NCBI GenBank assembly: GCA_965153455.1 | Contig: OZ234493.1 | Location: forward strand, 36,632,213-36,696,212 | Direction of reading: 5' to 3' | DNA: 64,000 nucleotides | Source of the DNA: Sphagnum compactum | Lineage: Eukaryota | In this document: positions 1 to 44,949 of the stretch, one piece after another | Position numbering within the stretch: position 1 is the first letter of the stretch | Layout: the number at the start of each line of letters is the position of its first letter | Notes under the pieces: generated by a model | Told to the model about the DNA's origin: nothing | The model's database searches: none | The model's input: the letters and a program-made list of their open reading frames with translations, nothing else | Made by a program: the position numbers and the translations under genes

Positions 1-85
1 CTATCCAACCGCGCAGATTTGTAGAAGGTTGTAATTGTTTATCCAGAAATTGATGTACCTCTAGGTGTATTAGAAAGAACTTGAA

Positions 86-1404
86 TCAAGTTACATGGTA
101 CCTCCTCCCCCCAACACTAAAAGTGAAGTGTAGAGTGTTGAAGATAGGCAAGTGTACTTGGTCGTGGTGACATGTAGTCGCATCGCCAGAATTGCAAGCT
201 GATTGAATCAATGCTAGTGTTGTGTACATTTGAAAAAGTACACAGGTTACCAACAACCATGTAAGGGAGTTCAAGTCCATGCCTCTCCCCAGTAGAGCGT
301 TACGCTCCAATCTAGTCACCTTAATGTGACTAGTAGTGCCAATTTGGAACCCCATAGCCCTTTCTCTTTCTTCTGGGCTTGGTTCATCCCAAGCGGTTCA
401 AGCATGACGATACACTATGCCTGGTCCATCTTCCTAAAAGGCGTGTGTTCCTAGGAAGGAGACAAATGTGGGCCAAGCATTTATTGGTTTTCCTATTGTG
501 TTAATAGGAAACCAAGGAGGTTTCTTTTGTGTTGTAATTGGTTGGCAGGAGCTTTGATCATCCAATATGTGAGAAACTTACAGGTTGGGGTCTCTGATGG
601 TGTATCTCAAAGCCAACTGCAGAACTGAGAATGGTGCAAAGTTGGTCCACCAGTTGCGCAGCTAGTGCGCATAGGAACCACATTGTGCCGCATCAAGTAG
701 GAGCGGCTCTCCAAGGTAATGCTTGACTAGCATGTAGTGTTCCTGGACTTTCTGCCTCTCGTCAAGCTGATAAGGGGTGTTCTCAATTACATAACCAAGT
801 GTAGGAGAAATGGATTGAGCCTAGATGATCAATCAAACCATGTCCATGAAGAGACCGGATCTTGTATCACTCAAGCCTTTTCTGCTAAAACCCTAAATCC
901 AACTGCTGAAAATCCTTGACACTCTCAACTTGAAATGATGAGGTCCACGGGGCCAAGTAATTCCATATGCTTCTTCTGAATTAGTTGTAGGTTAGAAGGC
1001 AAGAAAGTGAAACTGGCCTTCCATGCGGTGGTTGCAAACTATTGTAGAAATCTGGATGTGAGCTCCATCATTCTTGATGCCGCCATTTGCCTTACAATAG
1101 GATCAATGTCTACATAGAAATACCTCCGAACCACCATCCTTGACTGTAGTAGGGCTTCGAGACCTGTACCGATACCACCAAAAAGTTCAAGTAATATAAT
1201 CCCCTCCTTAGGCAGTGTCTAAGTGATTAGTTGACGAAATACTGGCTTAATTGGTTCGCCATGGCTCTCCATGTTTTCAAAACTAAACAGAGTTTTAACC
1301 ACGGGCTTATGGGCTGCTTCGAATCTCTATAAAACCTCTGGTCCATGTTGAATGTCAATAGGAACCACCCTCAAGCTTTCAGTAGCTTGGGTGTAAGTTG
1401 TTTC
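86..1404 (-). pseudogene. DNA (cytosine-5)-methyltransferase domain inside the retrotransposon pol (DNMT3/Dcm-like), inactivated by stops and frameshifts
   Basis: Manual translation: motif I ILLELFGGIGTG (~1165-1200), II YFYVDID, IV VDLIISS*ECQGFS (Cys codon 921-919), V GLSDTRSGLF, VI YVIENTP, VII/VIII PLLLDAAQCGSYAH*LRNWWTN, IX-X EERERAMGFQIGTT...RNALLGRGMDLNSL. Confidence 0.9.
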
Positions 1405-2044
1405 CTTTTTTAAGCACCCACAAGCTCCTTAATAGACTCAAATGTGAGTCTAAACTGAAAACAGCAGAAGAGCAAAGAGTCGAGGCACGCTCCCTGGCTT
1501 GCAACTCTTTGGGGGGGTAGAGGGCTGTGAGCCATGGATTATAATACCACAAATTGTTAAGCTTTAGTTCCATATTTTTCCTTAGTATTAATGATTTGAA
1601 TCCTGATAAACCTCCAAATAATAATCATTAGGAGTTGGATTAGCCTTTGGATATTTCAGCGTAGAAGACTTTTTTGTTTAAATTGATGCAAGGTTTAGTT
1701 AGTTTTAGGACCTAGTAAACCTTTTTAAGGGCATTATCCTTTTATGTTGTAGAGAAAATAAAAGGGATGTAGAATTAGATGTGATTTATTAATATATTTG
1801 GAATACAAGCCCATAACTAACAATAGCATTTCGCCATGACAATATTAAGTTAGCTTGTAAAATAATCTTCAGGCACGAATGATGTACTGGAAAGATTTCT
1901 AAGATGTATTCCTAATACATCTTTATTTAGTTTTCACTTCTATCAGACGCTTAGATAAAATCAAAATCAAACTTAAGTATTAACATTTCCACCTGAGTGG
2001 CCTAAGGTGAATTAAAACTTAGTAAACAACTTTAAGGGAATAGA

Positions 2045-2473
2045 TCACAATTGCAAAAACTCCAGAATGCGACGAATGGTGCGAGCTAGGTATTCGGCTC
2101 AATGCTCCATGGAAAGGGGGTTAATTAGGCCTCGTAACCAACGATAATGGCCATCACCGGGAACCCAAGTTCGACAATGAAGACGAACATCGTCGTCTTC
2201 ACATTAACACTCTTCAAACCTTTCTAGCGCGGTTCCTCGAGCAGGAACAAATTCTAAATAAATTGCTAAGGCATGTGGGTTAGGAGATAATCAACGATCC
2301 CATGCCGAACGATCGACTCGAGTGCGCACCACTCTTCTGGATGGTTCTTCTTCGTGCGACCGTTGAGAGACATTCACCTCAAGCGCTACTTCATCAAGCG
2401 ATGCTTCTTCAAGCTCTTCCTTGTCTATTGGTGCAACTGGAGGATTCGAAGGCATAGCGACCTCATCCGCTAT
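2045..2473 (-). pseudogene. LTR B-embedded small ORF, copy 1 (start codon mutated to ATA, three internal stops)
   Basis: Collinear with 44018-44431 with no frameshift; ends EYLARTIRRILEFLQL*. Confidence 0.7.
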
Positions 2474-3350
2474 GACTAAATTATCACATGCATTAACAAA
2501 AACAAAGGGTAGTAGAAATAATGTGGTACTTGCGTTCAGAAAGGGTCGAGGCCTTTTTATTTAACAAATTAGGGTAGGCGTAAAGTGTGGGAGTGACGGC
2601 GGAACCTCATGAAAACTTGAACATCCTGTATCTAATGGATTCATCGAACCCTAATTTCGATGGTGGATCTAGGAGTATGTGGGGGGTTTTTGTGATGCAA
2701 ATTTTAATTCCAATGTACTATGTACTACATAGTTAATTAGTGCATGGAAGAAAAAATAAGTAAGGGATATCAAAAGAGTAAATGGTACGTGGGGATGTTA
2801 CTTCAACCATTGAATTGATTTAGTCAAGTAAGGACTCAAGGATGTTTACTTGTTACTACCGATAAATTGTCCTAGTAGTTAGTTACTTGAAATAATTAGG
2901 ATGAAGAAGTAGGATGTGAGGGTCAACGGACGGAAAGGATAAGGATCAAGCTCAAGAACCTCATCAAAATATCCAAGATAAGGGGAAGGATGAGTCCTCT
3001 AATCCCATTAGTCATGAGGATTATCATCCTATTCGATTGCAGGATGGAATATTTTTTGTGTCTCATTGGGCCCAAGAATTTTCATCCTAAAATCAATTGG
3101 AGGGCAAATTATTCTCAATTCTCATTGGTTCTTAAAGGATGAGGAGGCCATTGATTGAAGGGAAGGATTTCGAAGCTTCCATTGGTAAAGGGGAACAAAT
3201 TCAAGGAAGGTCGTGAAGGCTTACCAAGGGAAAGAGGAGTATCTTGGGTTGAGAAAAGGAGAAGGGAAAAAAATGAATGTGTGACGAAAAGATTAGTTTT
3301 TATGTGTGGAAAGGTGTTGTTCATGAAAAGGATGTGTGCAAGAAATAAGC

Positions 3351-3935
3351 ATGGAAGGATTTCCATGACAAAGCCTTTGGAGTTTTGTTTCAAATAGTTG
3401 TTCCTCCCAAATCCAATGTTGGATTTTTGCCAAACTTAAAACAGTTCTTGTTTAGGAGGTGTAAGAGATCCTGTCCAAATTTCAGCATCATCGGGTTTCA
3501 TGTGAGGGAGCTACACTTGCCGGAAGTTGAGGGTGTTTGTAATGGAGTTCATGGAAGGATTTCCATGACAAAGCCTTATGAGTTTTATTTCAAATAGCTG
3601 TTCCTCTCAAATTCACCGTTGGATTTGTGTTAAACTTCACAAAAAAAAATTTTAAGAAGTGTAAAAGGTTCCCTCCAAATTTCAGCATCATCGAGTTTGG
3701 TGTGAGGGAATTATACTTGCCGAAAGTAGAGGGTGTTTGTAGTGGAGTTCATGGAAGGATTTCCATGACAAAGCCTCTGGAGTTTTATTTCAAATAGTTG
3801 TTCCTCACAAATCCACCGTTGGATTTGTGTCAAACTAAAAATAGTTCTTGTGTAAGAGATATAAAAGTTTCTCTCCAAATTTTAGCATTATCGGGTTTGC
3901 TGTAAGGGAGCTACACTTGCCGGAAGTAGACGGGG
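3351..3935. repeat. Three tandem 200-bp units inside LTR B copy 1
   Basis: ATGGAAGGATTTCCATGACAAAGCC recurs at 3351, 3551 and 3751. Confidence 0.9.
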
Positions 3936-4852
3936 TTGAATTTGTCTGTCTTTTCTTCAATCTAAGCAAGTGATGTTTAGTCCCAAGGCTTAACTCTTGA
4001 TTAAAAAAAAAAAAACTTATAAGATTTTGTAACATAACTCCTTTTAGAGTAGTCTTTTCAAAAATCCAATGCATGTTAAATTAGGAAGTTGTATGTAGAT
4101 GTTATGACAAATGGAACAAAAAGGGTTCAACCATCAAGCGTGACATTGAATGAACATCAACATAATGCCCTTCATATTCCATCATGGTGAGTTACGATTC
4201 TCCCATAATGTCTTTATATCTTCCAAGTGGACACAACGCATTAGATTTTTAGTGAGCTTCATTGCATTACCTTAAACCACCATACTTGTTAGATTACAAC
4301 TACATAGTAGTTCCACTTTCAAGCGGGTTTTGTGAGTGCAAATTTCTATATGTTGAAGGTGTGCAAGAATTCCTCACAAGGGGCGTGTTGGAGTTCCGAG
4401 GTGCGACTAGGAAGAATGATAAGCACTTAATCCACTCACACGGATCTGCACAAAACCAAACAACAAGTCAATTAGTGCTTAGTCGGGGCACTTTTGGTGC
4501 TAAAATGAGCCATGGGCAAACTCGGACTCACAAGACTCACCTCGGCCCGGACTTGGGGGAAGCCACCACCTTCCCCCTTATAGTATATTTTGTGCCGCTC
4601 CACGAGGCCCACATTCAAATGGCATTTTGTCCCAGGATTCCCGCGACTTTGGGGCCCCATAACTTTGTGTGAAGATGTTTAATTGAGATGAGGTCTAAAG
4701 CAAAGTTGTAGCCCTTGTTGACGATATGTCGCACGCCACCTGCGTGCAAGTAAATCGTGTCAGTTTCCGACTTTTAGTGGTCGGGAGTCAAACTGTCACT
4801 TTGATTCCCGGCCTTTCTTTTGGCCATGACTTGTGTTTCAGATATCTAAATG

Positions 4853-5671
4853 TGACGCGCTCCCAAGTTCCTAGCTAGACCCAAGATGGGTCTAAGTTAC
4901 TCAAATAACAGAAATGTGAGGAACTCGAGGCACGCTCCCAACCTTCAGCACTTAAAGGGGTAGAGGGGCGTGTTGAAGCTCCGGGATGGGACTAGGAAGA
5001 GTGACAAGCTTTAGTTACTTACTTGAACCTGCATCAAACCAACCAACAAGTTGGTTAGTTCACTTTCTGGAACACCTTTAGTGCTACAACAAGCCATGCG
5101 CAATTCTGGAGTCACAAGACCCACCACGGCCCGGACTCGGGAAAAGCCACCACCTTCCCCCCTATAGTATTCTCTGTGCCTCTCCGCGGCACCCACGCCC
5201 GAATGGCTTTTTATCCCGGGACTCCCAAGGAGGAGTCCCGAAATTGTCCCGGTTTGGACTTCCGGGACTTTGCGAGGTCACAACTCCTTCCTCAGACCTC
5301 CAATTGGGATGAGGTCTGAAGCAAACTTGTAGCTCTCCTTGAGAGTTTTCCAACGTGTGTTGCACTCCACTTGCATGCATCGGGGTCGGGTCGATTCACG
5401 ACTTTTAGTGGTCGGGAGTCAAACTGCCAGTTTGATTCCCGGCCCTTCTTTTTGCCATAACTTGTGCTGATGATGTTCAAGTGGCCCATGCGAGCCCATT
5501 TTTGACATCTACACTTTGATAGCTTTCCAATAATATAAAGAACACTCTAATGCAAGGTCTTTTGACCCCTGCAATTGAAACTGAAGTTTTGGGAGTCTCG
5601 GAGGACTTCCAAGTCCCCATTTCGGGAGTGTGAGTCTCATCCTCACACTCTCTCAAAGTAGGGTTGCGACA
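4853..5671. mobile_element. Solo LTR C (819 bp) nested in LTR A
   Basis: TGACGC...TGCGACA termini; perfect TSD AAATG (4848-4852, 5672-5676). Confidence 0.9.
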
Positions 5672-5940
5672 AAATGGGTCACATGAGCCCATTTTAGACA
5701 TCTACGTTTCAATAGCTTTTCAATGGTATAAAGATTTCTTCAATCCATTAGGTTTTCACCCCTGCAATCGCTTTTTGAAGATTTGGGAGTCCATTGGGAC
5801 TCCAACTCCCCAAAGTGGGAGTTCCCTTGGGAGTGTGAGGGTACATTCCCTCACACTTTCCTTCACTCCAAGGCTTCGTCTTGGCCCACTACATTGCAAC
5901 CCCTTGCCTTGGTTGCGAGCTCAAGGTTAGAGTTGTGACA

Positions 5941-6691
5941 CTCTTCATCTCTCTCTATCCACTTGTGGTTAAATTGTTGGATGTAGGAAATGGTGAGCCA
6001 TAGGACTAGGGTTCCCATGTAAATCAAGGGGTATGTATCCCAAGTGGTGGCCATCAGTCTAGCAATCCACTCGATAATACGCATGCTCAAACTTGTTGTC
6101 AATTGTGATACATGGTGGAAACAGGGCCTCTTACCCAATGAACACATCGTAACTGGTGGCATTGGTGACTAAACATCTAACCTGTAGGCAAAGCTCTTGA
6201 TATGTACCTTCATTGAAGTTAAGTGCAATCAAATTCAAGTTCTCCCCAAGTACCTCCTCTACGTTTCCACTAGCGATGCGAATTTGCCACATAGATTTTT
6301 TTAGTCTGGAATCGAGCATGCCCATCTTCTTGGCGAATTGAACTCCAAAAATCACTGGTTGGGCACCTGTATTAAGAAGTACCACTCTGGGTGTATGTCC
6401 TCCCACCTGGATTACTAACTTAGTATTGTCGATAATGGCAACTCCGATGGCGATGGAAGTTCTCTCACTAGGCACCACCTTCGAAAATGGGTGAAAGACT
6501 TTGTGGAGAGAATGGTTATCCACAATGCCTTTGTTGAGTAACAAATCCACAAGTGAGGTGTTCTTAGTTCCCTTCTGATATGTGAATGTAAAATCAGAGG
6601 TAGGAGAGCCTACTAGTTTAGCCATGCTAGAACTAGTGACCAGATTATGAACGCCATCTACAACACATGAGCCAATCAAGTGTCTCTCCAA
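5941..6691 (-). pseudogene. Retroviral-type aspartic protease and linker of the DNMT retrotransposon
   Basis: ORF 6131-6691 contains VVLLNTGAQPVIFG and the C-terminal YDVFIG motif typical of retropepsins. Confidence 0.8.
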
Positions 6692-6999
6692 GGTGTTGGA
6701 TGGGACCCTTGTAGCATGTGGATCAGGGATTGGTAGAGGACTTCATGTAGTGTTCAGAGTATCCTTTAATACTGCAATTATATCCCTGGTGCTTAGCTTC
6801 AAATCTTGAAAACTAAACAAAGGTGTACTCACAAGCTTTTGCGCCACTTCACGCATTTGAAGTTGGCACTCATAAGCTGATCAGTGAAAAATTGTGTGTT
6901 TTCCTGATGTACATGTACCCCTGGGATACGAGAATTTGATGCCCTAGCAGCTTGTGGTGTAGTAGTCTCCTCCCCCGTCGCCAACAAGGTGCGTTTTTT

Positions 7000-8833
7000 T
7001 TCCGTGTTGAAAGGACGAAAAGATTATGACATGACTGTTCGAGCTCTTCTAGCCCTGGTAATAGGACTTGAACCAGATGCGAGTCCATTAATCTGAATTA
7101 CCTGCCCAGTGACAGAAACTATGGGTGCCACACTAGCTTCTTGTGCCGCGAAGTAAGAAGGGTAAAAAGAAGTGGCAAATTCTGGTGTGAGACTAGAATT
7201 GTGTGCATTGGAAAGAACATACTCCCAACCATGGCATCGTGTGAGAGGCCATGGAATGACTTAGGAGGTCCCTCCCATGATCATGAACCCTGTACATGTT
7301 GGGCATGAGTAGCTGGTTGGGAAGACTTGCCTTTTAGATTAGCAAGTTCGGCCCTTAATGATTCGAGTTCATTTTGCAGAGTTTGAACTTGAGCGACATG
7401 GGCTTGAAGCACATCCCTCTTGTCAGCATTGTGCTCCTTTTTCTTAACATTCTTTTTGGAATTACCCTTGGTGGGGAAAGCCTAAGTGTAAGGCTGAGGT
7501 GCCTTGGCTTTTGGTTGAAGGGTAGTGGAAGATGCTGGCAGATTTTGCCGTGGTAATTGGGGTTGCTTTCATTTCAAGAACATGAGAAAACAAAGAGCTT
7601 GCTGATGTCCCTCTTTCCCACAATAATCATAACAGAGATCCTCGGAACGAATGTTGCACTCATTAGCTTTGTGGGCAAGATTGCCACAATAGTTCCAAGA
7701 AAGTGGGATGGGTGCAACCGAGTGCACCGCTTTAGCCCTTGAAGAAGAATGTGATGATCTGGTTGGCGCAGCTGGTGAAGGCTGAGGCTATGAATGTGAT
7801 GGAGGCCTCATAGTACTGGCCTCATAATGTGCATGAGCCAGTTCTAGCTTTTCAGAAATGTTGTACACATCCAGCAAAGTGTACGAATTTCCAAATTTTG
7901 CAAAACCTACGCATGGAGTGTTGGAGTACCTTCCAACAAAGGAAAATACTGATGGGCAACTTCCAGGTCTGTGATGCTATGAGTATCCTCTTTGAGCTTG
8001 AAAAGCCTCCTATAGAGCATCTTGAGGGTTTCATCCTTCTGCCGAGAGAAGGTGACGAACTGCAGAATTTTTTTAGAACTCTTAATCGGAACTTCCAGCT
8101 TAAAAACTCGAAAGAATTCCTCCACTGGATCAACAAAAGTTGGTGGATCGATGGTGGGAGGAATGTTTGCGGTAGCAGTAATGAGTTGTTGAGGAGAAAG
8201 GTTTACTGAAGTAGGTACCATGATGTGCAATGGTAGCTTATAGTGCAGCTTGAGAGGCGGTGGTGATGGCTGTGGCATAAGTTGGATTGCGGATCTGGAT
8301 GACACCCAAAATTCTTGGAAAATGTTGTTTGTAGACATCTAATGCATCATAGTGCACATAACGGGCCAATTTTTGAATGCGAACACCTCGTTGTAATTAA
8401 CGCCATACTTGAGCTCCAGTTCACAAACCACAGTTGAAAAAGTTGCCTTGAATTCCATCAAAGAAATGGTACCTCACCTTTCGATGAACTTTTCAATTCT
8501 CCCAGAGGAACTGCTAACCTCCATGGTGTATGTGGGTGTAAAGGTAATGGTTTTCAGCGAAATATATGGTGATGGTCTGAAAGTTGATGCAGCAGCAGGC
8601 ATAGCCCACTGATTAACCCCTCCAAATGAACTTTAATGTACGATTCATGTAGTGTAACTTGAACTTGAATTCCTGGTACGAGTTGCACTGGATGACGGTG
8701 GCGCTATAGATGCTTCATGGTACTGTTGTAAAGATCGTGAGCTCAAAGAAATCGGTTCAAATGATTGTGTGTTGCTTCAAAGCTCACACCTAGGCTGTGG
8801 CTGAACAGTAGTGCTCTCATCATTCGAGGACAT
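7000..8833 (-). pseudogene. Gag of the DNMT retrotransposon
   Basis: Capsid-like FSRQKDETLKMLYRRL in ORF 7907-8338. Two degenerate CX2CX4HX4C knuckles, (W)NYCGNLAHKANEC and (Y)DYCGKEGHQQALC, at ~7590-7697. Candidate ATG at 8833. Left boundary approximate. Confidence 0.75.
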
Positions 8834-8858
8834 GGTGTTCTCGCATGCCGCAAAATTT

Positions 8859-9567
8859 TGTAGCAATACAGAGCACTAGCTACAAAATTCTAACACAACA
8901 TACGGTTTGAAGAATACGGTGCATCGATAGGGATGAACGGTGATGGCCGGACGTCGGTGGACGAATGTTGGTGGAGGAACATCTATGGACAGACGTCGGT
9001 CAACGAAAGGGGTTGGACAGACAAAACGAAATGGACGGATGTTGACAGAACTGTGACGAACGTTGGACGGAACGGATCGAACCGAAACGGACTTGACCGA
9101 ATCGGCCAGATTGGATCAAAACAAAACTGACCAAACCGAAATGGACCTGACCAAAATGGAACAAACCTGAACGGACTGGAAAAGACCTAATCGGACCAGA
9201 AAGGACCTAACTGGATCGAAAAGGACCTGACCGAATCGGAACGGACCTGACAAGACCGGACCGGAACAAAGTCGACTTGACCAGAGCGAAACGGAACGGA
9301 CGAAATCAGCGAAACGGAACGGATCAGACCAGACCGGAGCAAAACAGAATGGACCGGACCAAACCGGAATGGACTTTTATACCCTTTTATACATGAACGG
9401 ACTTGGCCTTTTATACAACCGTCAACAAGCTGAAACCCTAAACAAGCCATAACCCTAAAACACCTAATAGCATAAAATAACCTAAGAACGTACATTAACC
9501 CTTAAAGGCATGATTGGCATGCCCGTAACCAACCGTCATGTATGAGGCCATGCATACGGGCATGACA
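8859..9567 (-). mobile_element. Putative 5' LTR of the DNMT retrotransposon
   Basis: Minus strand starts TGTCATGCCC and ends ATTGCTACA (TG...CA). Repeated TATAAAAG on the minus strand at ~9375-9415. Lies directly upstream of Gag. The partner LTR is not in the window. Confidence 0.6.
8933..9375. repeat. Degenerate pentanucleotide repeat (GACCG/GAACG) inside the LTR
   Basis: Visible ~5-bp periodicity, e.g. GACCGGACCGGAAC. Confidence 0.8.
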
Positions 9568-10179
9568 CATCCTTTGGAGTTGTAAGCATACCTAATAATA
9601 GGAAGCAGAAAGGAAACATGGATATCATCAGTAAAAATTACAAGTACTATGATGTTAGGTTCTTGTCTTGATAGGAAACTTGAAGTATCAAGGAACTAAA
9701 ATCAAGAACCATCAATCTTGGCATATAGATCCAAGGAACCAGAAAGGAAGCAACCAACTTACCATATAAATGTAAGGAAACAGAAACAGCACAACCTACT
9801 TACCATAGTAATGTAAGGAAATAGAAAGGAAGCAACCTGGTTAACACAAAATTGTAAGGAATCAAAAATAACAACTTATTGTATGTCCTTGTACAAAATG
9901 TAAGGAAACAAAAAGGAAGTAACATGTACTAGTTAAACAACATTTTGATCATTGATGCTACTTAAAGAACTCAAAGTAAAGTTGGGATTGCTAGGAATCA
10001 AGACATAATTAATCTGTATTAACAATTTTAACAATTTTATAATCACATTTATGTCCAAAAATCTATGACTACTAATACCACAACTAATAGTTTTAATTTA
10101 TGCACATACTAGGAACCAAAGGTACAAGAGACCATGATCTACTACTGAATTCAAATAACATGTAATCATGGATTGCATC

Positions 10180-10930
10180 ACATACTTGAAACTCCAAGAG
10201 AAGGTGGGTTGCATGGGACTCCCAAGATTTTCAAGCAAGGCGCCTTTTTACAACATCCTTCATGTTGGGACTCACTCACGTATTGTTTGTCCAAAACTTG
10301 ACAACTGCATTGCATATCTCAAAGTACAAAGCGTCCTTACTTTTAGCCTTCCCATAGAAAGCCCAAATAACTTTATTCATTTGGGATTCAAAAGACAATC
10401 TCCTCTCCATACCTTGTTTGAAGTTTTTTCGATGAATTCCTATGAGTGCATTAGTATGGCGAATGTTACGAACGGAATCAAAAGCCACCATAGGAATGAT
10501 AACATTCCGAACACGCTGGTCATTGTTAGAGTGGTTACCTTTAATAAATTGCCATCCTTTGGAAAAGTTGTTGAGTGTGTTGTGTACATTTTCCAAATTA
10601 GAAGATTTTGGTAGTACATCTTTCCAGATTGGGTGTTTCAAAATCTTCAAAAGTAGCAACCTTTGGAACTCAAGGCCTTTAGCTGCAATTTGATGGAACC
10701 ATTCCATTGCTAACAAATTTGCATATCTACTAGCTGAGCTATTTAAGTTCACATATGTGTTGACCTTAGGAGCAAGTTCATTAACAATGGCCACTGCATT
10801 TCCCACTATAGATTTTTGACACTCTTTGCACCTCCTTTGCCTTTGCTTCTAGGCTTCTTTTCTTGCAACATTAGCTTCTAAATGGGCTTGTGTACCCTGG
10901 CCATCTTGTGGTTTGCTTACACTATGTACC
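10180..10930 (-). pseudogene. Transposase-like fragment, possibly Sola-type N-terminus
   Basis: ORF 10276-10806 continues past a stop: FWTNNT*VSPNMKDVVKRRL. This recalls Sola2 transposase N-terminal motifs, from memory only. No DDE core seen. Confidence 0.35.
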
Positions 10931-13899
10931 ATGTTTATCAAGAACTAAACTTGACAACACGGTTTCCTTGACAAACCTTAACACACAAATAACCTTATTT
11001 TTAAATTATAGCATTTCATGATCTTGTAACAATAAGCCAAGAATCTTATAAAATCGTGAGGTTTTTGCATTATTGTATTCAGTGCATACATCCTTTGGAA
11101 CCTTTTTAAAAACTCATTCCCAATCAACTTAATTCTAAGTAGCTTAAGGAATTATAGCTTGCACATAGTAAGGTTGTAGAACTGAAGCTAGTATGTAAAA
11201 CTTTTCAAGGCAGAATTTCAACATGGAGTTTAAGATGATTTAATTTACCTTGCAATTGTATTTTTTTCAAGAAAATGATGTATTGAAAATATGATGTTTA
11301 TGACCCTAATGAGGGCCCTTGCCAAGAGTTGTCCAAAAAACCTATACAACATAAAAAACATGGTGGTTAGTTTGGTGAAGCTCCACCAAATCATTCACTA
11401 GCCTTTAATTCTAGATGTTTTTTGAATCCCTTCAACTATATCTCCACGAATGTCTTTGAACAAATCCACATGGATTGTACATATTCCATCAAACACATCA
11501 AGGTAACATATAATTCCATGAGCTAGTTACTCTAATTCTGAATCATACGTTGAGGTGCAAGCTCCATTCTCAATTTGGTCCCACAACAGACCTACAACAT
11601 TTATAACAAAAAACAACATTTAAGGAGCTTGGACTTGTGGAAAGAAAAATATATAACTCTTATATCCTTGTTTGATGTATTTGGACCTAAGTAGATCATG
11701 AAGTAGCTTGAACAAAATACATGGACAAGTTTAAGCTAGTGAGCTGTATGAAAGTTTTCAAATTATGCAAAACTTACAAAGGACCATGGCTTACACATAA
11801 TACACATGAATACTGCGAATGCTAATTACATGTAGTATGTAATTTCCCATTCCTACCAACCTTCCACCAAACTATGTTCAAAGTGAGGCTGATGTTCAGT
11901 ACAATACCTTTTAAATCTAGCATAAACTTTCAATCAAGTTTAAGTTTGCATGAATGTATTACAAAATCACTTGACCTCCATCATTGCCACTAGTAGTTGC
12001 TGGTAGCACATGATTGTTTGCAATAAGACCTTTTCCATCAATCTCAATGTTTGCAAGGTCTCTTGATACCCTTTTAACATAGTATACAAACTCAAGAAGA
12101 GAATTCATACCATGGCCGTTTTTATGCAAGAATGCATATATCATAGAGAACCCACAAAGAAAAGCACATTGGTTGTGGATATTCATGCCTGCAAATCTAC
12201 ACCATTCACACATGATGTGTTTCTAGCAACACTCAAAGAGAGTGCTGATGAACATTCAAAAAGGGAATATCACCATCGCCATCAAGAGAGCTTTTCTAAG
12301 AACCCTAATTCCCTTCACGCATGTTGTGTTTGCAGCAACACTCAGAGAGTGTGTGATGGTGAGCACCTAGAAAGGACATATTGCCATCGCCATCGACATG
12401 TTCTTTGAAAACCTTAACTTTCGTGAGAGATGGAAAATCTAGCCCCGCCAAAATCGATAGCTCCTATTGTTTAAATTTCAAATTAAACAATGGAAATCTA
12501 TCCATGTCATTAATTTGTTGAAAATGGGGTTCATGAACTTGTGTTCCTTTGTATGGAATCCCAAGGAACGCCAAAAAGTATTTGTTAGAGATTATAGTAT
12601 TGACAATTCAGTTTTCTAATGAATACTCAACATAAATAGATGTTACTTGAAATGCCCTACTAGGAAAAATCAAAATCAAGCTAAAAATTTCAGAAAAAAA
12701 AGTTCCTAATCCATGTGGTGCTATTAGGACCACATTTCCTGATGTTGAAAAATATATAAGTAATTATTGTGACACATTTCATTATGTTTGTCTATATTCT
12801 TCCCTATGTAAAGATCATAGGATTCCTTTAATATAGGGAATAAAATCAAATGGGTTCAAGAATGCTCTTGTTGGTTTCCTATGTTCATGACCCCAAAAAG
12901 TGATTTTCCTAAAGCTTTTAATATAAGAAAGGTGTAGGAACATCAAAACATGTCCAAATCTTATGGGACATGACCCACTTTAATATCCCAAAGATGCACA
13001 ATGTAGTAATATGGGCCAACTTTTAAAATACCAAACTAACACAAATTAATCCTAAAGTTAACTCCTTTCATGTAACGGGACATGTGATGTTCCTAGTAGT
13101 ACCCCTAATTTTACTTGCACCCAAGAAGAAGAAGAATAAACATGAGATGGAAATGGTAGACCTTTATTTGGAGACTTAGACTGCAAAGGCAAAATGTTGG
13201 AAAGAATATGCTATTTTCTTTGTTTCTCTTACTTTTCTTTTCTCAAATTTTGTAGTCTTTCTCTGCATTGTTTTTTTAACTTCTCAACAAAGCTTTCTTT
13301 TATGCTCATTCTGGAGATGGAAAACAATAAAAACTTGTTTGAAGAAAACAAAAATGAAGCGTTGTTGTGTTATTTGTTGGTTGTAAAAATGCCATCATCT
13401 CGTTTCATGTAGTGACATTTCACTTTTTACTTTAAGGTTAGTGTCTTAATGATTTGTCCTTTTTTTTAATTTTTTGAAACTTGTCGATTTCTATTTGAGT
13501 TCATACTAATAACAATATGAACTACAATTGATGCCTCCTGACCTAATAACTATGTAGATATGGGCATTGGGTTCTTTTGATAACACCTCTAATTATGATG
13601 ACTTAGTGTCTACACTACAGATTTATTTTATCATGTGCTAAGTCATCATATCAACAAAAAATTTGTTCGAATGTTATAAACGTATCTAACTTATAGTCTA
13701 GTGGTTGTGAAACTATGTAATCATGGTCTTTGAGTAGTATCATAGCTTACTGACTCATCAAATTCATTGAGGCTTCTTTTGATGTGATTGTTTGATCAGT
13801 ATCTATGATCTTTGATGTTCTCTCACCTTTTGAATCCTCATCAAATATCTTTTTTCTATGGTTAGAATCTATAAACTCTAAAGACTTTTGATTTTCTGA

Positions 13900-15660
13900 A
13901 CAACGTATCCTTTTTTATGCCTAATCCACATATATGTATGGTTTCAACTTGTTAATATTGACCAATATTGGGTTTGGTTCAAAATTATTAACATAAACAA
14001 GAATGACAATGTTATTAGGTAAGCAATATTGTACCCTGAATGGGCCAAACCGTCTTTTCTTAAAATTGCCTAGATGTGTATTTTCTTCCTTGTGATTACA
14101 ACAAAACATAATCTCAAAATTGAAACTTCTTCTTTGTGTGATTATGTTGATTCCATAAAAATTTGCTCCATTAGTTTGCTCCAACATTATTCTAAACCTC
14201 CAATTTGTTCTCATGTAACTTTTCCAGTTCTGTAATTCTAACAGTTAGTACTATGGTGGGTTCTCCATCTCTGTGGTCTCCACTAATAGCTGATAGAACA
14301 TATTCTGTTGGCATTAGAGGATGCAAACCATAAATTAATTAGTAAGGTGCATATCATGTTGCCACCTTGTAAGTTGTCTTGTATGAAAATAAATTTGTGG
14401 ACAAATGTTCATCCTAGTCTGTCCTCTTTTCATTGACTAACTTGTTAGTAATCCACCAATAACTTTGTTAATAGACTCTACTTATCCATTTCCTTGTCGG
14501 TAATAAGTAGTATAACTAAGATGTTTTATCAAAAATTATTCTATTAGATGTTTTATTATATCATTAGTGAAATCTTCTCCTTGATCTATAATTATGGTTA
14601 GAGGACATCCAAATCTGGTCAAAATATACTCATACAAAAATCTAGCTGTAACTACTACAATATTGGTTCTGAGTGCTTTTGCCTTTACCCACTTGGCTGC
14701 ATAATTTGTAGTTACCAAAATTGGACCTATAAAATCTAGACCCCACTTCATAAAAGGTTCCTTTGGAAATGTTGTTATTAGTTTGGCTAGACTTTTTGTT
14801 TCTAGTCCTCCAATTCTTTGACAACTATCACAACTTCTACAAAATTCATGAGTATCTTTGAATAAAGTTGGCCACCAATAACATGCATCCAAAATTTTCT
14901 TTGTAGTAATATTTGTAGCAAAATGTCCTCCTACCATTCCTTCATGTAACTCCTTTAGAACAATCTATGTTTCTGAGATGGTCAAACATCTGCGTAATCT
15001 CTTGTCTTATCCCACTTTGTACATTTTTCCCTCTTTAAGACAAAAAGGTTCTGCATGTCTAACTAACTTTTATTTTTGAACTAAGTTCAAAATTTTTAGC
15101 ATCTAACCTATCTTTAAGCAACTTTTCACTTCTTGCATCCATATAGGTTCTATAGAGAATAATGATGCATCTACAATTTGATCTAGTACTCCCAATGGTT
15201 CTAAGCTATCTAGTAATCCAGATAAAACATCAGCTACCACATGTGTTTTACTAGGCTTGTAGACTATTGTGAATTCACATTCCAAAAATAACAACAACCA
15301 TTTGGCTATCCTTCTAAACACCTGTGGTTTGTTCATTACATATGCAAGAGCCACATGGTCTACATAAAAGAAAAATTTGTTTCCCAAAAAAAAATGGTTG
15401 AACTTATGCAAAGCATACAACCATTACTAAGGCTTCTCTCTTTATAGTAGTATAATTTTGCTATGCTTTATTTAGTAGTTTATAAGCATATACTATAGGT
15501 TAGTCATACTTACCAGTTGGGTTTTGTGCTAACATTACACTTATTGCCAGTAAAAATGCATTTGTGTGCACATGGAAATCCAGCTACCAAATTGGAAGTA
15601 TGAGAATTGGTGCTTCCATATATGTTTGCTTGATTTGATCCCAAGTTTCTTAACACTTTT
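13900..15660 (-). mobile_element. Ty3/Gypsy pol remnant: RNase H, integrase and GPF/Y region
   Basis: YALHKF...YVDHVAL...RIAKWLLLFLE (RNase H); GGHF...YWWPTLFKD...CRSCDSCQR (integrase HHCC); PFMKWGLDFIGPI (rve); RRFGPFRV. RNaseH-then-integrase order indicates Gypsy. Confidence 0.9.
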
Positions 15661-42287: not shown

Positions 42288-44949
42288 TGTGAGGAATTAT
42301 TGCACACCTTCACCACTAAGATATGCACTCACAATAAAAACCCAGTTGGAAGTGGAACTACTATGTAGTGTAGTCTAACAAGTAAGGTGGTTCGAGGTAA
42401 GTAATGAAATTCACCAAAAATCTAATGCGTTGTGTCCAAATTGAAGCTATAAAACATCGTGAGGGAATTGTAACTCACCATGATGGAATATTGAGGAGCC
42501 GTATGTTGATGTTCATTTCAATGTCATGTTCGATGGTTTGAAACCTTCCATTCCGTTTGTCATAACAACTACATACAACATCCTAATCTAACATGCATTG
42601 GAGTTGGAAGCTAATATAAAAGGAGCCATGTTTAAACAAATCTCATAAGTTTTTATTTTATGTTTTTGATCAAGAGTTAAGCCTCGGAGCTAGGAGCCAC
42701 TCGCCTAGTTTGAGGAAAAAATAGATAATTCAACCCCCTCTACTTCCAACTAATGTAGCTCCCTTATAGAAAGCCCGATCAAGCTGAATTTTTAGGAAGG
42801 GCCTTCTACAACTTCTAAGCTAAAACTAATTCAAATTTGACACAAATCCAACGGTGGATTTGAGAGAAATAACTAATTGAACCCAAAGTCCAGAGGCTTT
42901 GCCATGAAAATCATTCCATGAACCCCACTACAACCCCCTCTACTTCCAACCCACGTAGCTCCCTTACAAAAAGCCCGATCAAGCTGAATTTTTGGGAGGG
43001 CCTTCTACACCTTCTAAGCTAAACCTAATTCAAATTTGACACAAATCCAACGGTAGATTTGAGAGAAACAACTAATTGAACCAAAAGTCCAGAGGTTTTG
43101 CCACAAGCACTTGCTACACAAGTTCCTTTCATGCTTAATCCTTACACACACACTTCCCATGAGCACCTCTCCACACATAAGAACTAAAAAACAATCTTCC
43201 TCACACTCATCCTCCTTCCTTTTTTTCTTTTTTTTTTCACATACACAAGAAGTCCTATCTTTTGCAAGCCTCCATGACCTTCCTTGAGCTTGTTCCCCTT
43301 GTCCTATAAAAGCTTCGAAATCCTTTTGCACCAATCAATGGCCTCCTCATCCTTCAAGGGCCAATGAGAATTTGAGAATGAATTGTCATCCAATTGAAAT
43401 TAGGATGAGAATCCTTGGGCCCAATGAAACACAAGAGATATTCCATCCTCCAATCAAAGAGGATGACAATCCTCATGACTAATGGGATTGGAGGATCCAA
43501 CCTCCCCCTTATCTTGGATATCTTGATGAGGTCTCTTGAGCTTGATCCTTATCTTTTCCATCCGTTGACCCTCACATCCTATTTCTTCATCCTAATTATT
43601 TCAAGTAACTAACTACTAGGATAATTTATCGGTAGTAACAAGGAAGAGTCCTTGAGTTCTTACTTGATTAATTCAATGGTTGAAGTAACATTTCCGTGTA
43701 ACATTTACTCCTTTGATATTTTCTACCTATTTATTTTACTATGCACTAATTAACTATGTAGTACATAGTAAATTGGAATTACAATTTGCATCACCAAAAA
43801 AAAAACTCTCACATACTTCTAGATCCACCGTTGAATTTAAGGTTTGATGAATCCCTTAGATTTAGGGTGTTCGAGTTTTCATGAGGTTTCGCTGTCACTC
43901 CCACACTTTATGCCTACCCTAATTTGTTAAATAAAAAGGCCTCGACCCCTTTTGAACGCAAGTACCACCTTGTTTGTACTACCTTCTTGGTTTTTGTTGA
44001 TGCAGGTGCAACTAGTCATGGCGGACGATGACGCTACGCCTTCAAATCCTCCAGTCGCACCCGTATAACAAAAAGAGCTTGAAGAAGCACCGCTCGACTT
44101 GAATGTTTCTCAACGGCCGCGCGAAGAAAAACCGCCCAGGAGAGTGGTGCGCACTCGAGTCGATCGTTCGGTATGGGATCGTCGATTGTCTCCTAACCCA
44201 CATGCTTTAGCAATTTATTTAGAGTTTGTTCCTGCTCGTGGAGCCGCGCCAGAAAGGTTTGAAGAGTGCCAGTGCAAAGATGATGATGTCCGTCTCCATT
44301 GTCGAACGTGGGTTCCCGGTGATGGCCATTATCGTTGGCTACGAAGCCCGACCAACCCACTTCCCCTGGAGCATCGAGCCGAGTACCTCGCTCGCACCAT
44401 TCGCCGCATCCTAGATTTTTTACAAGTGTGATCTATCCTTTAAGTCAGTTATTTAGTTGTAATTCACCTTAGGCTACTCAGGCGAAAATGTTAATACTTA
44501 AGCTTGATTTTGATTGTATTTAAGAATCTGATAGAGTGAGAACTAAATAAAGATGTAATAGGACTGCATCCTAAAATCTTAAAAGTACATCATTAGTGCT
44601 TGAAGGTCATTCTATAGACTAACTTAACATTGTCATGGTGAAATGTTATTGTTAATTATGGGCTTGTATTCCCAATATATCAATAAATCCCATCTAATTT
44701 TACATCCCTTTTCCCTTCTCCACAACATAAAAAAGGACAATGCACTTTTAAAGGTTTACTAGGTCCTAAACTAATTAAGCGTTACATCAACTGAAATAAA
44801 GAGTATTCTATGCCTAGAAATATCACAAAAGCTAATTCAACTATTAATAATCACTACTTGAAGGTTTATAAGCATTCAAATCATTAGTACTAAGGAAATT
44901 TAAGGAACTAAAGTTTAACTATTTGTTGAGCTATAATCCATGGCTCACA
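42288..44949 (+). mobile_element. Solo LTR B, copy 2 (2662 bp)
   Basis: TGTGAG...CTCACA termini; perfect TSD AAGGG (42283-42287, 44950-44954); two 200-bp units at 42731 and 42931. Confidence 0.9.
44018..44431 (+). pseudogene. LTR B-embedded small ORF, copy 2 (137 codons, one internal stop at 44066)
   Basis: ATG at 44018 after an acceptor-like TTTTTGTTGATGCAG; ends EYLARTIRRILDFLQV*. Confidence 0.7.

Follow-up and report, generated by a model that had tools for sequence, protein, structure and literature searches.

A decayed Gypsy-type retrotransposon copy in Sphagnum compactum, from a family with a DNMT3-type methyltransferase domain in its polyprotein

The element copy in the window

Positions 1-9567 of a 64,000-nucleotide stretch of Sphagnum compactum DNA (contig OZ234493.1 of assembly GCA_965153455.1; the whole stretch is hereafter the window) hold, on the minus strand, the 5′ part of a long-dead Ty3/gypsy-type retrotransposon copy. 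It belongs to a high-copy peat-moss family whose polyprotein runs from Gag through protease (PR), a DNA cytosine methyltransferase (DNMT), reverse transcriptase (RT), RNase H (RH) and integrase (INT) to a PHD finger. We put the probability of this identity and architecture at about 0.92, a figure that covers these two only and does not extend to the methylation mechanism discussed below. The 5′ two-thirds of the element fall in the window: a terminal repeat, Gag CCHC knuckles, an aspartic protease and a C5 methyltransferase domain at 1218-101. The RT, RNase H and integrase-PHD parts, and a set of repeats in the order B-A-B, would be expected past the left window edge.

Two related proteins, P0125 and P0124, align to the window by tblastn. 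On the minus strand, P0125 is collinear with 8524-5941 and then with 1410-410, and P0124 carries on to position 3. The Gag remnant (7224-8524, minus strand; P0125 residues 1-447) has seven in-frame stops and one frameshift. Its first knuckle, YCGNLAHKANEC at 7691-7656, has lost its first Cys and is followed by a second, CYDYCGKEGHQQALC, at 7634-7590; among the minus-strand stop-to-stop open reading frames (ORFs), CCHC-knuckle fragments lie at 7569-7787. The linker and aspartic protease (5941-7224, minus strand; P0125 residues 448-886) have four in-frame stops and three frameshifts, giving 11 stops and four frameshifts for Gag-PR as a whole. The protease active site reads LLNTGAQ at 6379-6359, with NTG in place of the DTG of LLDTGAQ in relatives. 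A protease-like ORF at 6131-6742 on the same strand matches Pfam gag-asp_proteas with E 0.0059 and Asp_protease_2 with E 0.07, neither of which reaches its cut-off. A sequence-only reading of the window had placed Gag knuckles and an aspartic protease upstream of a DNMT on the same strand, and the peptides located at 7691-7590 and 6379-6359 bear this out.

Between protease and DNMT lies a nested insertion of 4534 bp, made up of other repeats, at 1407-5940. It is recognised as an insertion into the element because positions 9732 and 9733 of a related locus, L066, are adjacent where the window is interrupted (blastn), and the excision proposed earlier, 1410-5945, was essentially right. On its two sides, window 1-1406 matches L066 11127-9732 with 87% nucleotide identity and window 5941-8943 matches L066 9733-6665 with 85% (blastn).

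C5 methyltransferases share a series of numbered motifs, including motif I (FxGxG), the catalytic Cys of motif IV, the ENV Glu of motif VI, the RxR of motif VIII, and motifs IX and X. In the window, the minus-strand segment 101-1406 comprises the end of the protease-DNMT linker and a DNMT3-like C5 methyltransferase domain, with motifs I-X at 1185-269. The start of the DNMT-to-RT linker follows at 1-134 on the same strand (P0124 residues 330-375 to 134-3, tblastn). We translated positions 86-1218 of this strand, where three methyltransferase-like fragments lie, with X at stops (read-through frames), and then located the peptides. These were LFGGIGTG (motif I, 1185-1162), YVDID (II, 1116-1102), (stop)ECQGFS (IV, 927-907), SDTRSGLF (871-848), VIENTP (VI, 790-773), QCGSYAH(stop)LRNWWTN (VIII, 685-641), ERERAMGF (IX, 370-347) and LLGRGMDLN (X, 295-269). 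The first stop replaces a Trp just before the catalytic Cys and the second an Arg in motif VIII. The motifs stand in canonical order and are spread over two reading frames. Of those reported earlier at 86-1200, motifs I, II, IV, VI, VIII, IX and X were recovered, and motif V could not be assigned independently. A motif series of this kind far exceeds what chance would give.

The DNMT and its tail carry about nine in-frame stops and one or two frameshifts, one of them near 895-920. With about 20 in-frame stops, at least five frameshifts and the NTG protease site, the window copy is dead, as had already been proposed. Its relatives could nevertheless be found by sequence: of 575 candidates, 125 proteins matched the read-through frame at E≤0.01, the closest of them with 83% identity (E 5.6e-123). 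Many of the 125 carry a precomputed assignment to the Pfam family PF00145 (DNA_methylase), and a protein atlas likewise confirms PF00145 for the family. The only named organisms among the 125 matches are Sphagnum balticum and S. magellanicum.

The 5′ terminal repeat, which we call repeat A, occupies 9378-9567 on the minus strand and starts with TGTCATGCC at 9567. By blastn it matches both A copies (A1 and A2) of four related loci, L066, L033, L060 and L007. In an alignment with A copies of four loci, the likeness extends over about 190 nt from 9567, after which short tandem repeats set in. A family-conserved TATAAAAGG (TATA) box in repeat A occurs in the window as its reverse complement at 9383-9391 and 9407-9415. 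The variable 5′ untranslated region follows at 8944-9377, with short tandem repeats of 15-40 nt periods at 9112-9374 (Tandem Repeats Finder); a blastn comparison of window 8943-9451 with the related loci gave no match, and the variable 5′ region is unalignable to theirs. The sequence-only reading had the element end at 9567 exactly right, as blastn and the alignment of A copies show, and erred on what adjoins it. Of the 709 bp at 8859-9567 that it took for a long terminal repeat (LTR), only the roughly 190 nt from 9567 match repeat A, the rest being the variable 5′ region. Its 5-bp target-site duplication (TSD), CATCC, does not agree with the 4-bp TSD of the family; the 4 bp outside the copy at 9567 are CATC (plus strand), and the opposite element end lies outside the window. 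Just beyond the 5′ end, a 41-nt tandem repeat is present in 3.3 copies at 9733-9868.

The methyltransferase in the family polyprotein

We next consider how the DNMT is joined to the other domains in relatives of the window copy. Pfam scans of these gave PF00145 scores above the gathering cut-off of 22 bits for P0124 (36.5 bits), P0004 (33.3 bits), P0125 (28.5 bits), P0075 (63.7 bits) and P0298 (48.2 bits). Relatives 83-84% identical to the window thus score 33.3-36.5 bits and more distant ones 28.5-63.7 bits. A search for long proteins found six. P0124 contains DNMT, RVT_1 and RNase H in one frame with 84% identity to the window frame, and P0125 (1214 amino acids, aa) contains Gag, knuckles, protease and DNMT in one open frame. 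In P0126, P0128 and P0129, each a polyprotein of 1500-1950 aa, RT, RNase H and integrase are accompanied by a PHD finger; these three match the DNMT stretch with 33-39% identity. P0298 runs for 2327 aa uninterrupted through zf-CCHC, Asp_protease, DNA_methylase, RVT_1, RT_RNaseH, Integrase_H2C2 and rve, in that order.

Scanning metagenome contigs with P0124 matched at least 600 stretches; at least 586 of these proved to be relatives, and we retained 80 loci. In these loci a protease copy is followed by a DNMT in 69 of 69 cases, at a median distance of 211 nt and with an insertion of about 820 bp between them in two; this linkage is no unbiased test, because the loci were picked with a DNMT-RT query. 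Introns were found in none of the family's DNMTs. A single locus among the 80, L066, has a stop-free frame of at least 600 aa on the element strand, namely its 847-aa DNMT-RT-RNaseH ORF.

These data bear on whether the window's DNMT might be a host DNMT3 gene or pseudogene that merely adjoins a Gag-protease fragment. The 4.5 kb separating the two parts in the window, and a DNMT remnant that Pfam leaves unscored, are what this explanation would have in its favour. The 4.5 kb is, however, a nested insertion absent from relatives, in which Gag-PR-DNMT and DNMT-RT-RH are single ORFs; hundreds of copies exist, without introns and with the same spacing kept in all 69. We therefore give adjacency to a host gene virtually no credence: it is refuted by the P0125 collinearity, the L066 alignment, the single frame of P0298 and the 69 of 69 linkage. 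The placement of the DNMT within the element's Pol polyprotein, as originally claimed, is borne out by P0125, which is collinear with the window, and by P0124, the L066 ORF and P0298, which join the domains in single frames. Three outcomes had been named as telling against that claim, namely a lack of PF00145, Gag-protease copies without a DNMT, and an intron-bearing host gene; at family level we found PF00145 in relatives, a DNMT with every one of the 69 protease copies, and no introns. Sequence comparison thus supports the DNMT as a fixed part of Pol rather than an adjacent host gene.

By sequence and predicted fold, the domain is of the DNMT3 type. Searching the L066 domain against PDB sequences with phmmer gave 51 matches, the top 29 of which were DNMT3A, 3B or 3C (best E 5.6e-9), followed by tobacco DRM (4.2e-4), M.HhaI (7.4e-3) and Arabidopsis DRM2. 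An AlphaFold2 model built from a 40-sequence alignment reached a mean predicted local distance difference test score (pLDDT) of 93.8 and a predicted template modelling score (pTM) of 0.91. When this model was compared with the PDB by Foldseek, 31 of 31 among the matches listed were DNMT3A/B/C catalytic domains (best E 1.7e-19, template modelling score 0.83 by target). Motifs I, IV (Cys), VI (ENV Glu), VIII (RxR), IX and X stand in canonical, unrearranged order in the family. Invariant in the 40 aligned relatives are G97, the catalytic C100, E142 of ENV, D172, W187 and N189, with several glycines among the invariant positions; R182 and R184 of motif VIII are at least 90% conserved.

To determine how far this association extends, we searched 1.84 billion representatives of clusters at 50% identity with HMMER. 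This exhaustive search matched the DNMT domain to 2403 representatives at E≤0.001, of which 759 remained at a threshold of 1e-10 and 254 at 1e-30. The best 150 all belong to the retroelement-linked clade. We examined 153 proteins, comprising the 149 best listed matches other than P0075 together with P0075, P0126, P0128 and P0129. At least one retroelement domain was present in 103 of the 153 (blastp with L066 domains). The commonest order was RT-RH-DNMT-INT-PHD, complete in 34; in a minority, the DNMT precedes RT, which is also the Sphagnum order. Phylogenetic analysis of 132 DNMT domains by maximum likelihood (sequences matching fewer than 280 query residues dropped; quick search, midpoint root, no outgroup) placed all 15 DNMT-before-RT sequences and five unclassified ones in one clade with L066, with a support of 99 in the Shimodaira-Hasegawa-like approximate likelihood ratio test (SH-aLRT). 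This clade contained none of the sequences in the tree with the DNMT after RNase H. These sequence relationships suggest that the alliance of DNMT and retroelement is old and widespread, beyond two lineages.

Terminal repeats and integrase-type insertion

The near-complete element at L066 spans 5558-14882 and contains Gag, protease, the 847-aa DNMT-RT-RH ORF, Integrase_H2C2, rve and a PHD finger. Repeat A1 (5558-5849) is followed by Gag from about 7083, the protease ORF (8696-9919), the DNMT-RT-RNaseH ORF (9920-12463), the integrase zinc domain (12464-13021) and the rve core with the C-terminal PHD finger (PF00628, 40.4 bits; 13022-14179). A G-run, GGTCTGGGGGGGG, lies just before repeat B1 (14229-14405), after which come repeats A2 (14406-14697) and B2 (14698-14873). 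Gag followed by the PR-RT-RNaseH-INT order with a DDE integrase is thus seen in L066 and in P0298, and the window itself contains Gag, PR and DNMT only. The best PDB matches of the PHD finger are the PHDs of WSTF, KMT2D, KDM5, ATXR5 and BAZ2, several of which read the unmodified H3 tail. In the L066 PHD finger (14000-14179), one zinc-binding Cys is a Tyr.

The layout A1-internal-B1-NN-A2-B2, where NN stands for two variable nucleotides, was found in 13 loci; nine more have B-A-B, and the others have A...B only. Repeat A is about 292 nt and repeat B about 176 nt long. The element ends are TGTCATG...CACGACA, that is TG..CA. We determined the TSD in 17 copies, after dropping L076 (truncated B2), L011 (truncated A1) and L068 (a duplicate of L067). 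A 4-bp TSD was exact in 11 of these copies, agreed at three of four positions in five and differed in one. At the B1/A2 boundary, ...CACGACA, two variable nucleotides and TGTCATG... follow one another in 13 of the 14 junctions printed, L067 being without the 2-nt spacer. The internal B1-NN-A2 junction reproduces the two element ends joined together.

Such split repeats raise the possibility of a DIRS/PAT-like element that moves by a tyrosine recombinase via a circular intermediate, rather than an integrase-type LTR retrotransposon. Both the A-coding-B-A-B arrangement (B-A-B in 22 loci, 13 of them also with A1), which is the DIRS layout as described in the text of PMC5890265, and an internal B-NN-A junction that copies the joined ends would fit. 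Against this stand the presence of Integrase_H2C2 and rve in the scanned ORFs and proteins, none of which matched PF00589 at E≤0.01, as well as RT-RNaseH_2 and integrase domains of the Ty3/gypsy type. The TG..CA ends and 4-bp TSDs are, moreover, a hallmark of DDE integration. We consider a DIRS/PAT-like element very improbable and retain the Ty3/gypsy-type assignment.

How the repeats are produced was considered in terms of LTR models. Two of these, B as U3 with A as R-U5, and A+B together as the LTR, were rejected, as standard strand transfers reproduce A-internal-B-A-B in neither. The flanks and the CCAA duplication are common to loci L009 and L060, one of which ends A...B and the other A...B-A-B. 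Because flanks and TSD are shared, the short A...B form can arise at one locus. This favours B1/B2 recombination or assembly collapse over primary products as the origin of the A...B-only copies.

Several further observations concern the nested insertion and other repeats. Within the insertion, a 200-bp tandem repeat at 3350-3937 has 2.9 copies, and the left part (1526-4378) has a second copy of about 80% identity at window 42288-44949 on the opposite strand. A dispersed repeat of about 820 bp at 4853-5672, with a partial tandem duplicate at 4379-5483, was also found at L037 (11037-11854), L023 (about 3922-4742) and L022 (about 6873-7697). About 30 of the 80 loci contain it, and it has inserted repeatedly within DNMT-family copies. 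No coding capacity was recognised in this repeat, which may be a non-autonomous element. Elsewhere in the window, 14458-15649 on the minus strand resembles the RNase H and integrase of P0124 and P0126 only weakly (tblastn, 21-31% identity) and is another, unrelated retroelement remnant.

Constraint, possible activity and known systems

A number of results weigh against the reading of the window as part of a methyltransferase-bearing Ty3/gypsy element, or against a once active enzyme in it. Pfam scans of the window's single ORFs and read-through frames (E≤10) gave no PF00145 match for the DNMT remnant. The window by itself fails this test because Pfam leaves the read-through frames unscored, and the PF00145 match anticipated by the sequence-only reading was obtained, above the cut-off, in the relatives 83-84% identical to it. 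Copies lacking a DNMT could have been missed among the 80 loci, ascertained as these were with a DNMT-RT query, and when the protease region served as query, only two long proteins came back; both contain PF00145, and so small a number gives no unbiased test for DNMT-less relatives. There is no fully intact copy among the 80 loci: DNMT-RT-RH is interrupted by stops in 79, and in L066 stops occur in Gag-PR and downstream of RNase H. The repeats are non-canonical, the layout not being one of two identical LTRs that flank an internal region. After A1, no primer-binding site complementary to a tRNA was recognised, although no systematic search for one was made. Finally, motif IV reads Glu-Cys (GWECQ) rather than the near-universal Pro-Cys in the Sphagnum family and most of its relatives, and catalytic activity is for this reason not assured.

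The Pro-to-Glu change would suit a DNMT domain that was kept but is catalytically inert, serving like DNMT3L as a DNA- or chromatin-binding or regulatory module that recruits or blocks host DNMT3. The closest solved structures, DNMT3A/B complexes with the inactive partner DNMT3L, point the same way. On the other hand, the catalytic Cys, the motif I glycines, the ENV Glu, the motif VIII Arg pair and motifs IX and X are conserved among relatives 33-44% identical, which would be unexpected for an inert scaffold, and some members of the clade (P0075, P0082) retain Pro-Cys. Key residues are also reported as conserved in KnitGypsy-Dnmt3, an element of the alga Klebsormidium nitens (text of PMC5890265). 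We consider an inert module unlikely.

For an estimate of past constraint, we calculated Nei-Gojobori ratios of nonsynonymous to synonymous substitution (dN/dS) for the 26 of 80 loci that match P0124 end to end in one frame (325 pairs, 323-324 per region in the medians). The median pairwise ratio was 0.44 in the DNMT, 0.46 in the linker and 0.37 in RT-RNaseH. These values are consistent with past constraint on the whole polyprotein and do not single out the DNMT. Two points count against a stronger statement: the ratio discriminates poorly, because the linker value is close to that of the DNMT, and all values include neutral decay.

The mode of decay is clearer. In the element bodies of L066, L033, L060 and L007, C>T/G>A changes account for 70-75% of the private substitutions and occur in CG, CHG and CHH contexts. 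At CHH sites, C>T amounts to 3-6% compared with 0.4-0.7% for transitions at A/T sites, a roughly tenfold, deamination-like excess that explains the large number of stop codons. The bias fits deamination of methylated transposon DNA in general; it does not tell which enzyme did the methylating, and self-methylation is not implied. Private counts for the window copy are mixed, because this copy is an outgroup to the other four.

DNA contigs of several organisms carry family members, and contigs of one run match parts of the window exactly. In one moss metatranscriptome, contigs cover most of the element including the DNMT, a finding that tells less for expression than it might, as carry-over of DNA is possible. 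Since only contigs were available, we did not count them as evidence of transcription, strand or copy number.

On our reading, a DNMT3-type DNMT became a fixed part of Pol in an old and widespread retroelement lineage, and was probably kept under constraint similar to that on RT while the family was active. The domain content also lets us propose how such an element might have worked, a scheme to which we give even odds. The polyprotein would be translated from RNA starting downstream of the repeat A TATA box, and the protease would release the DNMT, either alone or still joined to RT. With S-adenosylmethionine, the enzyme could then act as a de novo cytosine methyltransferase on the cDNA of the element, as the sequence-only reading had suggested, or on the new insertion and its surroundings. 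The integrase PHD finger, which resembles readers of the unmodified H3 tail, may tether integration to silent chromatin, where the DDE integrase would insert the TG..CA-ended DNA and generate the 4-bp duplication. We infer catalytic activity, substrate, benefit to the element and PHD specificity from sequence and predicted structure.

A more far-reaching version is quite doubtful in our view. It holds that the peat-moss lineage of Gypsy elements with DNMT3 and PHD, shared with or inherited from algae (streptophyte or other), was recently or is still active and writes 5-methylcytosine on its insertions and, in trans, on the host genome, while the B-NN-A junction regenerates the termini in a DIRS-like manner despite DDE integration with 4-bp TSDs. 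If true, this would give land plants their first de novo methylation system carried by a transposon, along with a previously uncharacterised replication logic for integrase-type retroelements.

Retrotransposons with their own cytosine methyltransferase invert the usual picture of host versus transposon. Published examples have so far come only from dinoflagellates and a single charophyte alga, and the Sphagnum family, with its hundreds of copies, extends them to embryophytes. The family also supplies natural open frames for studying what such an enzyme methylates. Its notable features are the Glu-Cys catalytic motif, the integrase PHD finger and the split repeats with integrase-type TSDs; the occurrence of DIRS-like repeats and integrase-type insertion in one family poses a mechanistic question.

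The statement in the sequence-only reading that retrotransposon DNMTs were reported in Symbiodinium and Klebsormidium by de Mendoza et al. 2018 was correct (text of PMC5890265). It knew of no description in land plants, and our full-text searches gave none in Sphagnum or mosses, subscription journals, figures and supplements being outside their scope. The text of de Mendoza et al. 2018 mentions neither Sphagnum nor moss (PMC5890265), and according to the text of an opinion paper, land plants "such as tracheophytes" lack methylases encoded by transposons (PMC6338049).

Compared with host enzymes, the family's DNMT is most like mammalian DNMT3A/3B/3C and plant DNMT3/DRM, which are its best sequence and structure matches and share the motif order and the AHRxRxxWxN motif VIII. 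It differs from these enzymes in its identity of only about 20-22%, the lack of PWWP and ADD domains, the E-C rather than P-C of motif IV and its place in a retroelement polyprotein; unlike those of DRM, its motifs are not circularly permuted. Like chromoviruses, which are also Ty3/gypsy elements, the family has a histone-reader domain fused to the integrase C-terminus, but the reader is a PHD finger rather than a chromodomain, and a DNMT is present.

Among transposons, SymbioDIRS-Dnmt3 and SymbioLINE-Dnmt of Symbiodinium likewise carry a C5 DNMT on a retrotransposon, and the former also has a Dnmt3-type enzyme and A-coding-B-A-B repeats (text of PMC5890265). SymbioDIRS uses a tyrosine recombinase and SymbioLINE an endonuclease, according to the same description, whereas the Sphagnum family has a DDE integrase, protease, Gag knuckles and TSDs. 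The closest counterpart is KnitGypsy-Dnmt3 of K. nitens, for which the text of PMC5890265 describes intronless Dnmt3-related DNMTs in the Pol of a Gypsy element present in multiple copies, with Ka/Ks below 0.2 and a repeat structure the same as that of DIRS retrotransposons, A-coding-B-A-B. Both families have an intronless, non-rearranged Dnmt3-type DNMT inside a Gypsy Pol, are multicopy and show dN/dS below 1. Both also combine A-coding-B-A-B repeats "as in DIRS" with Gypsy domain content, a likeness drawn from the published description and not from sequence. KnitGypsy-Dnmt3 is described from an alga, and the Sphagnum family resides in an embryophyte with hundreds of copies or more. The family is best filed as the kind of element described as KnitGypsy-Dnmt3, now in a land plant.

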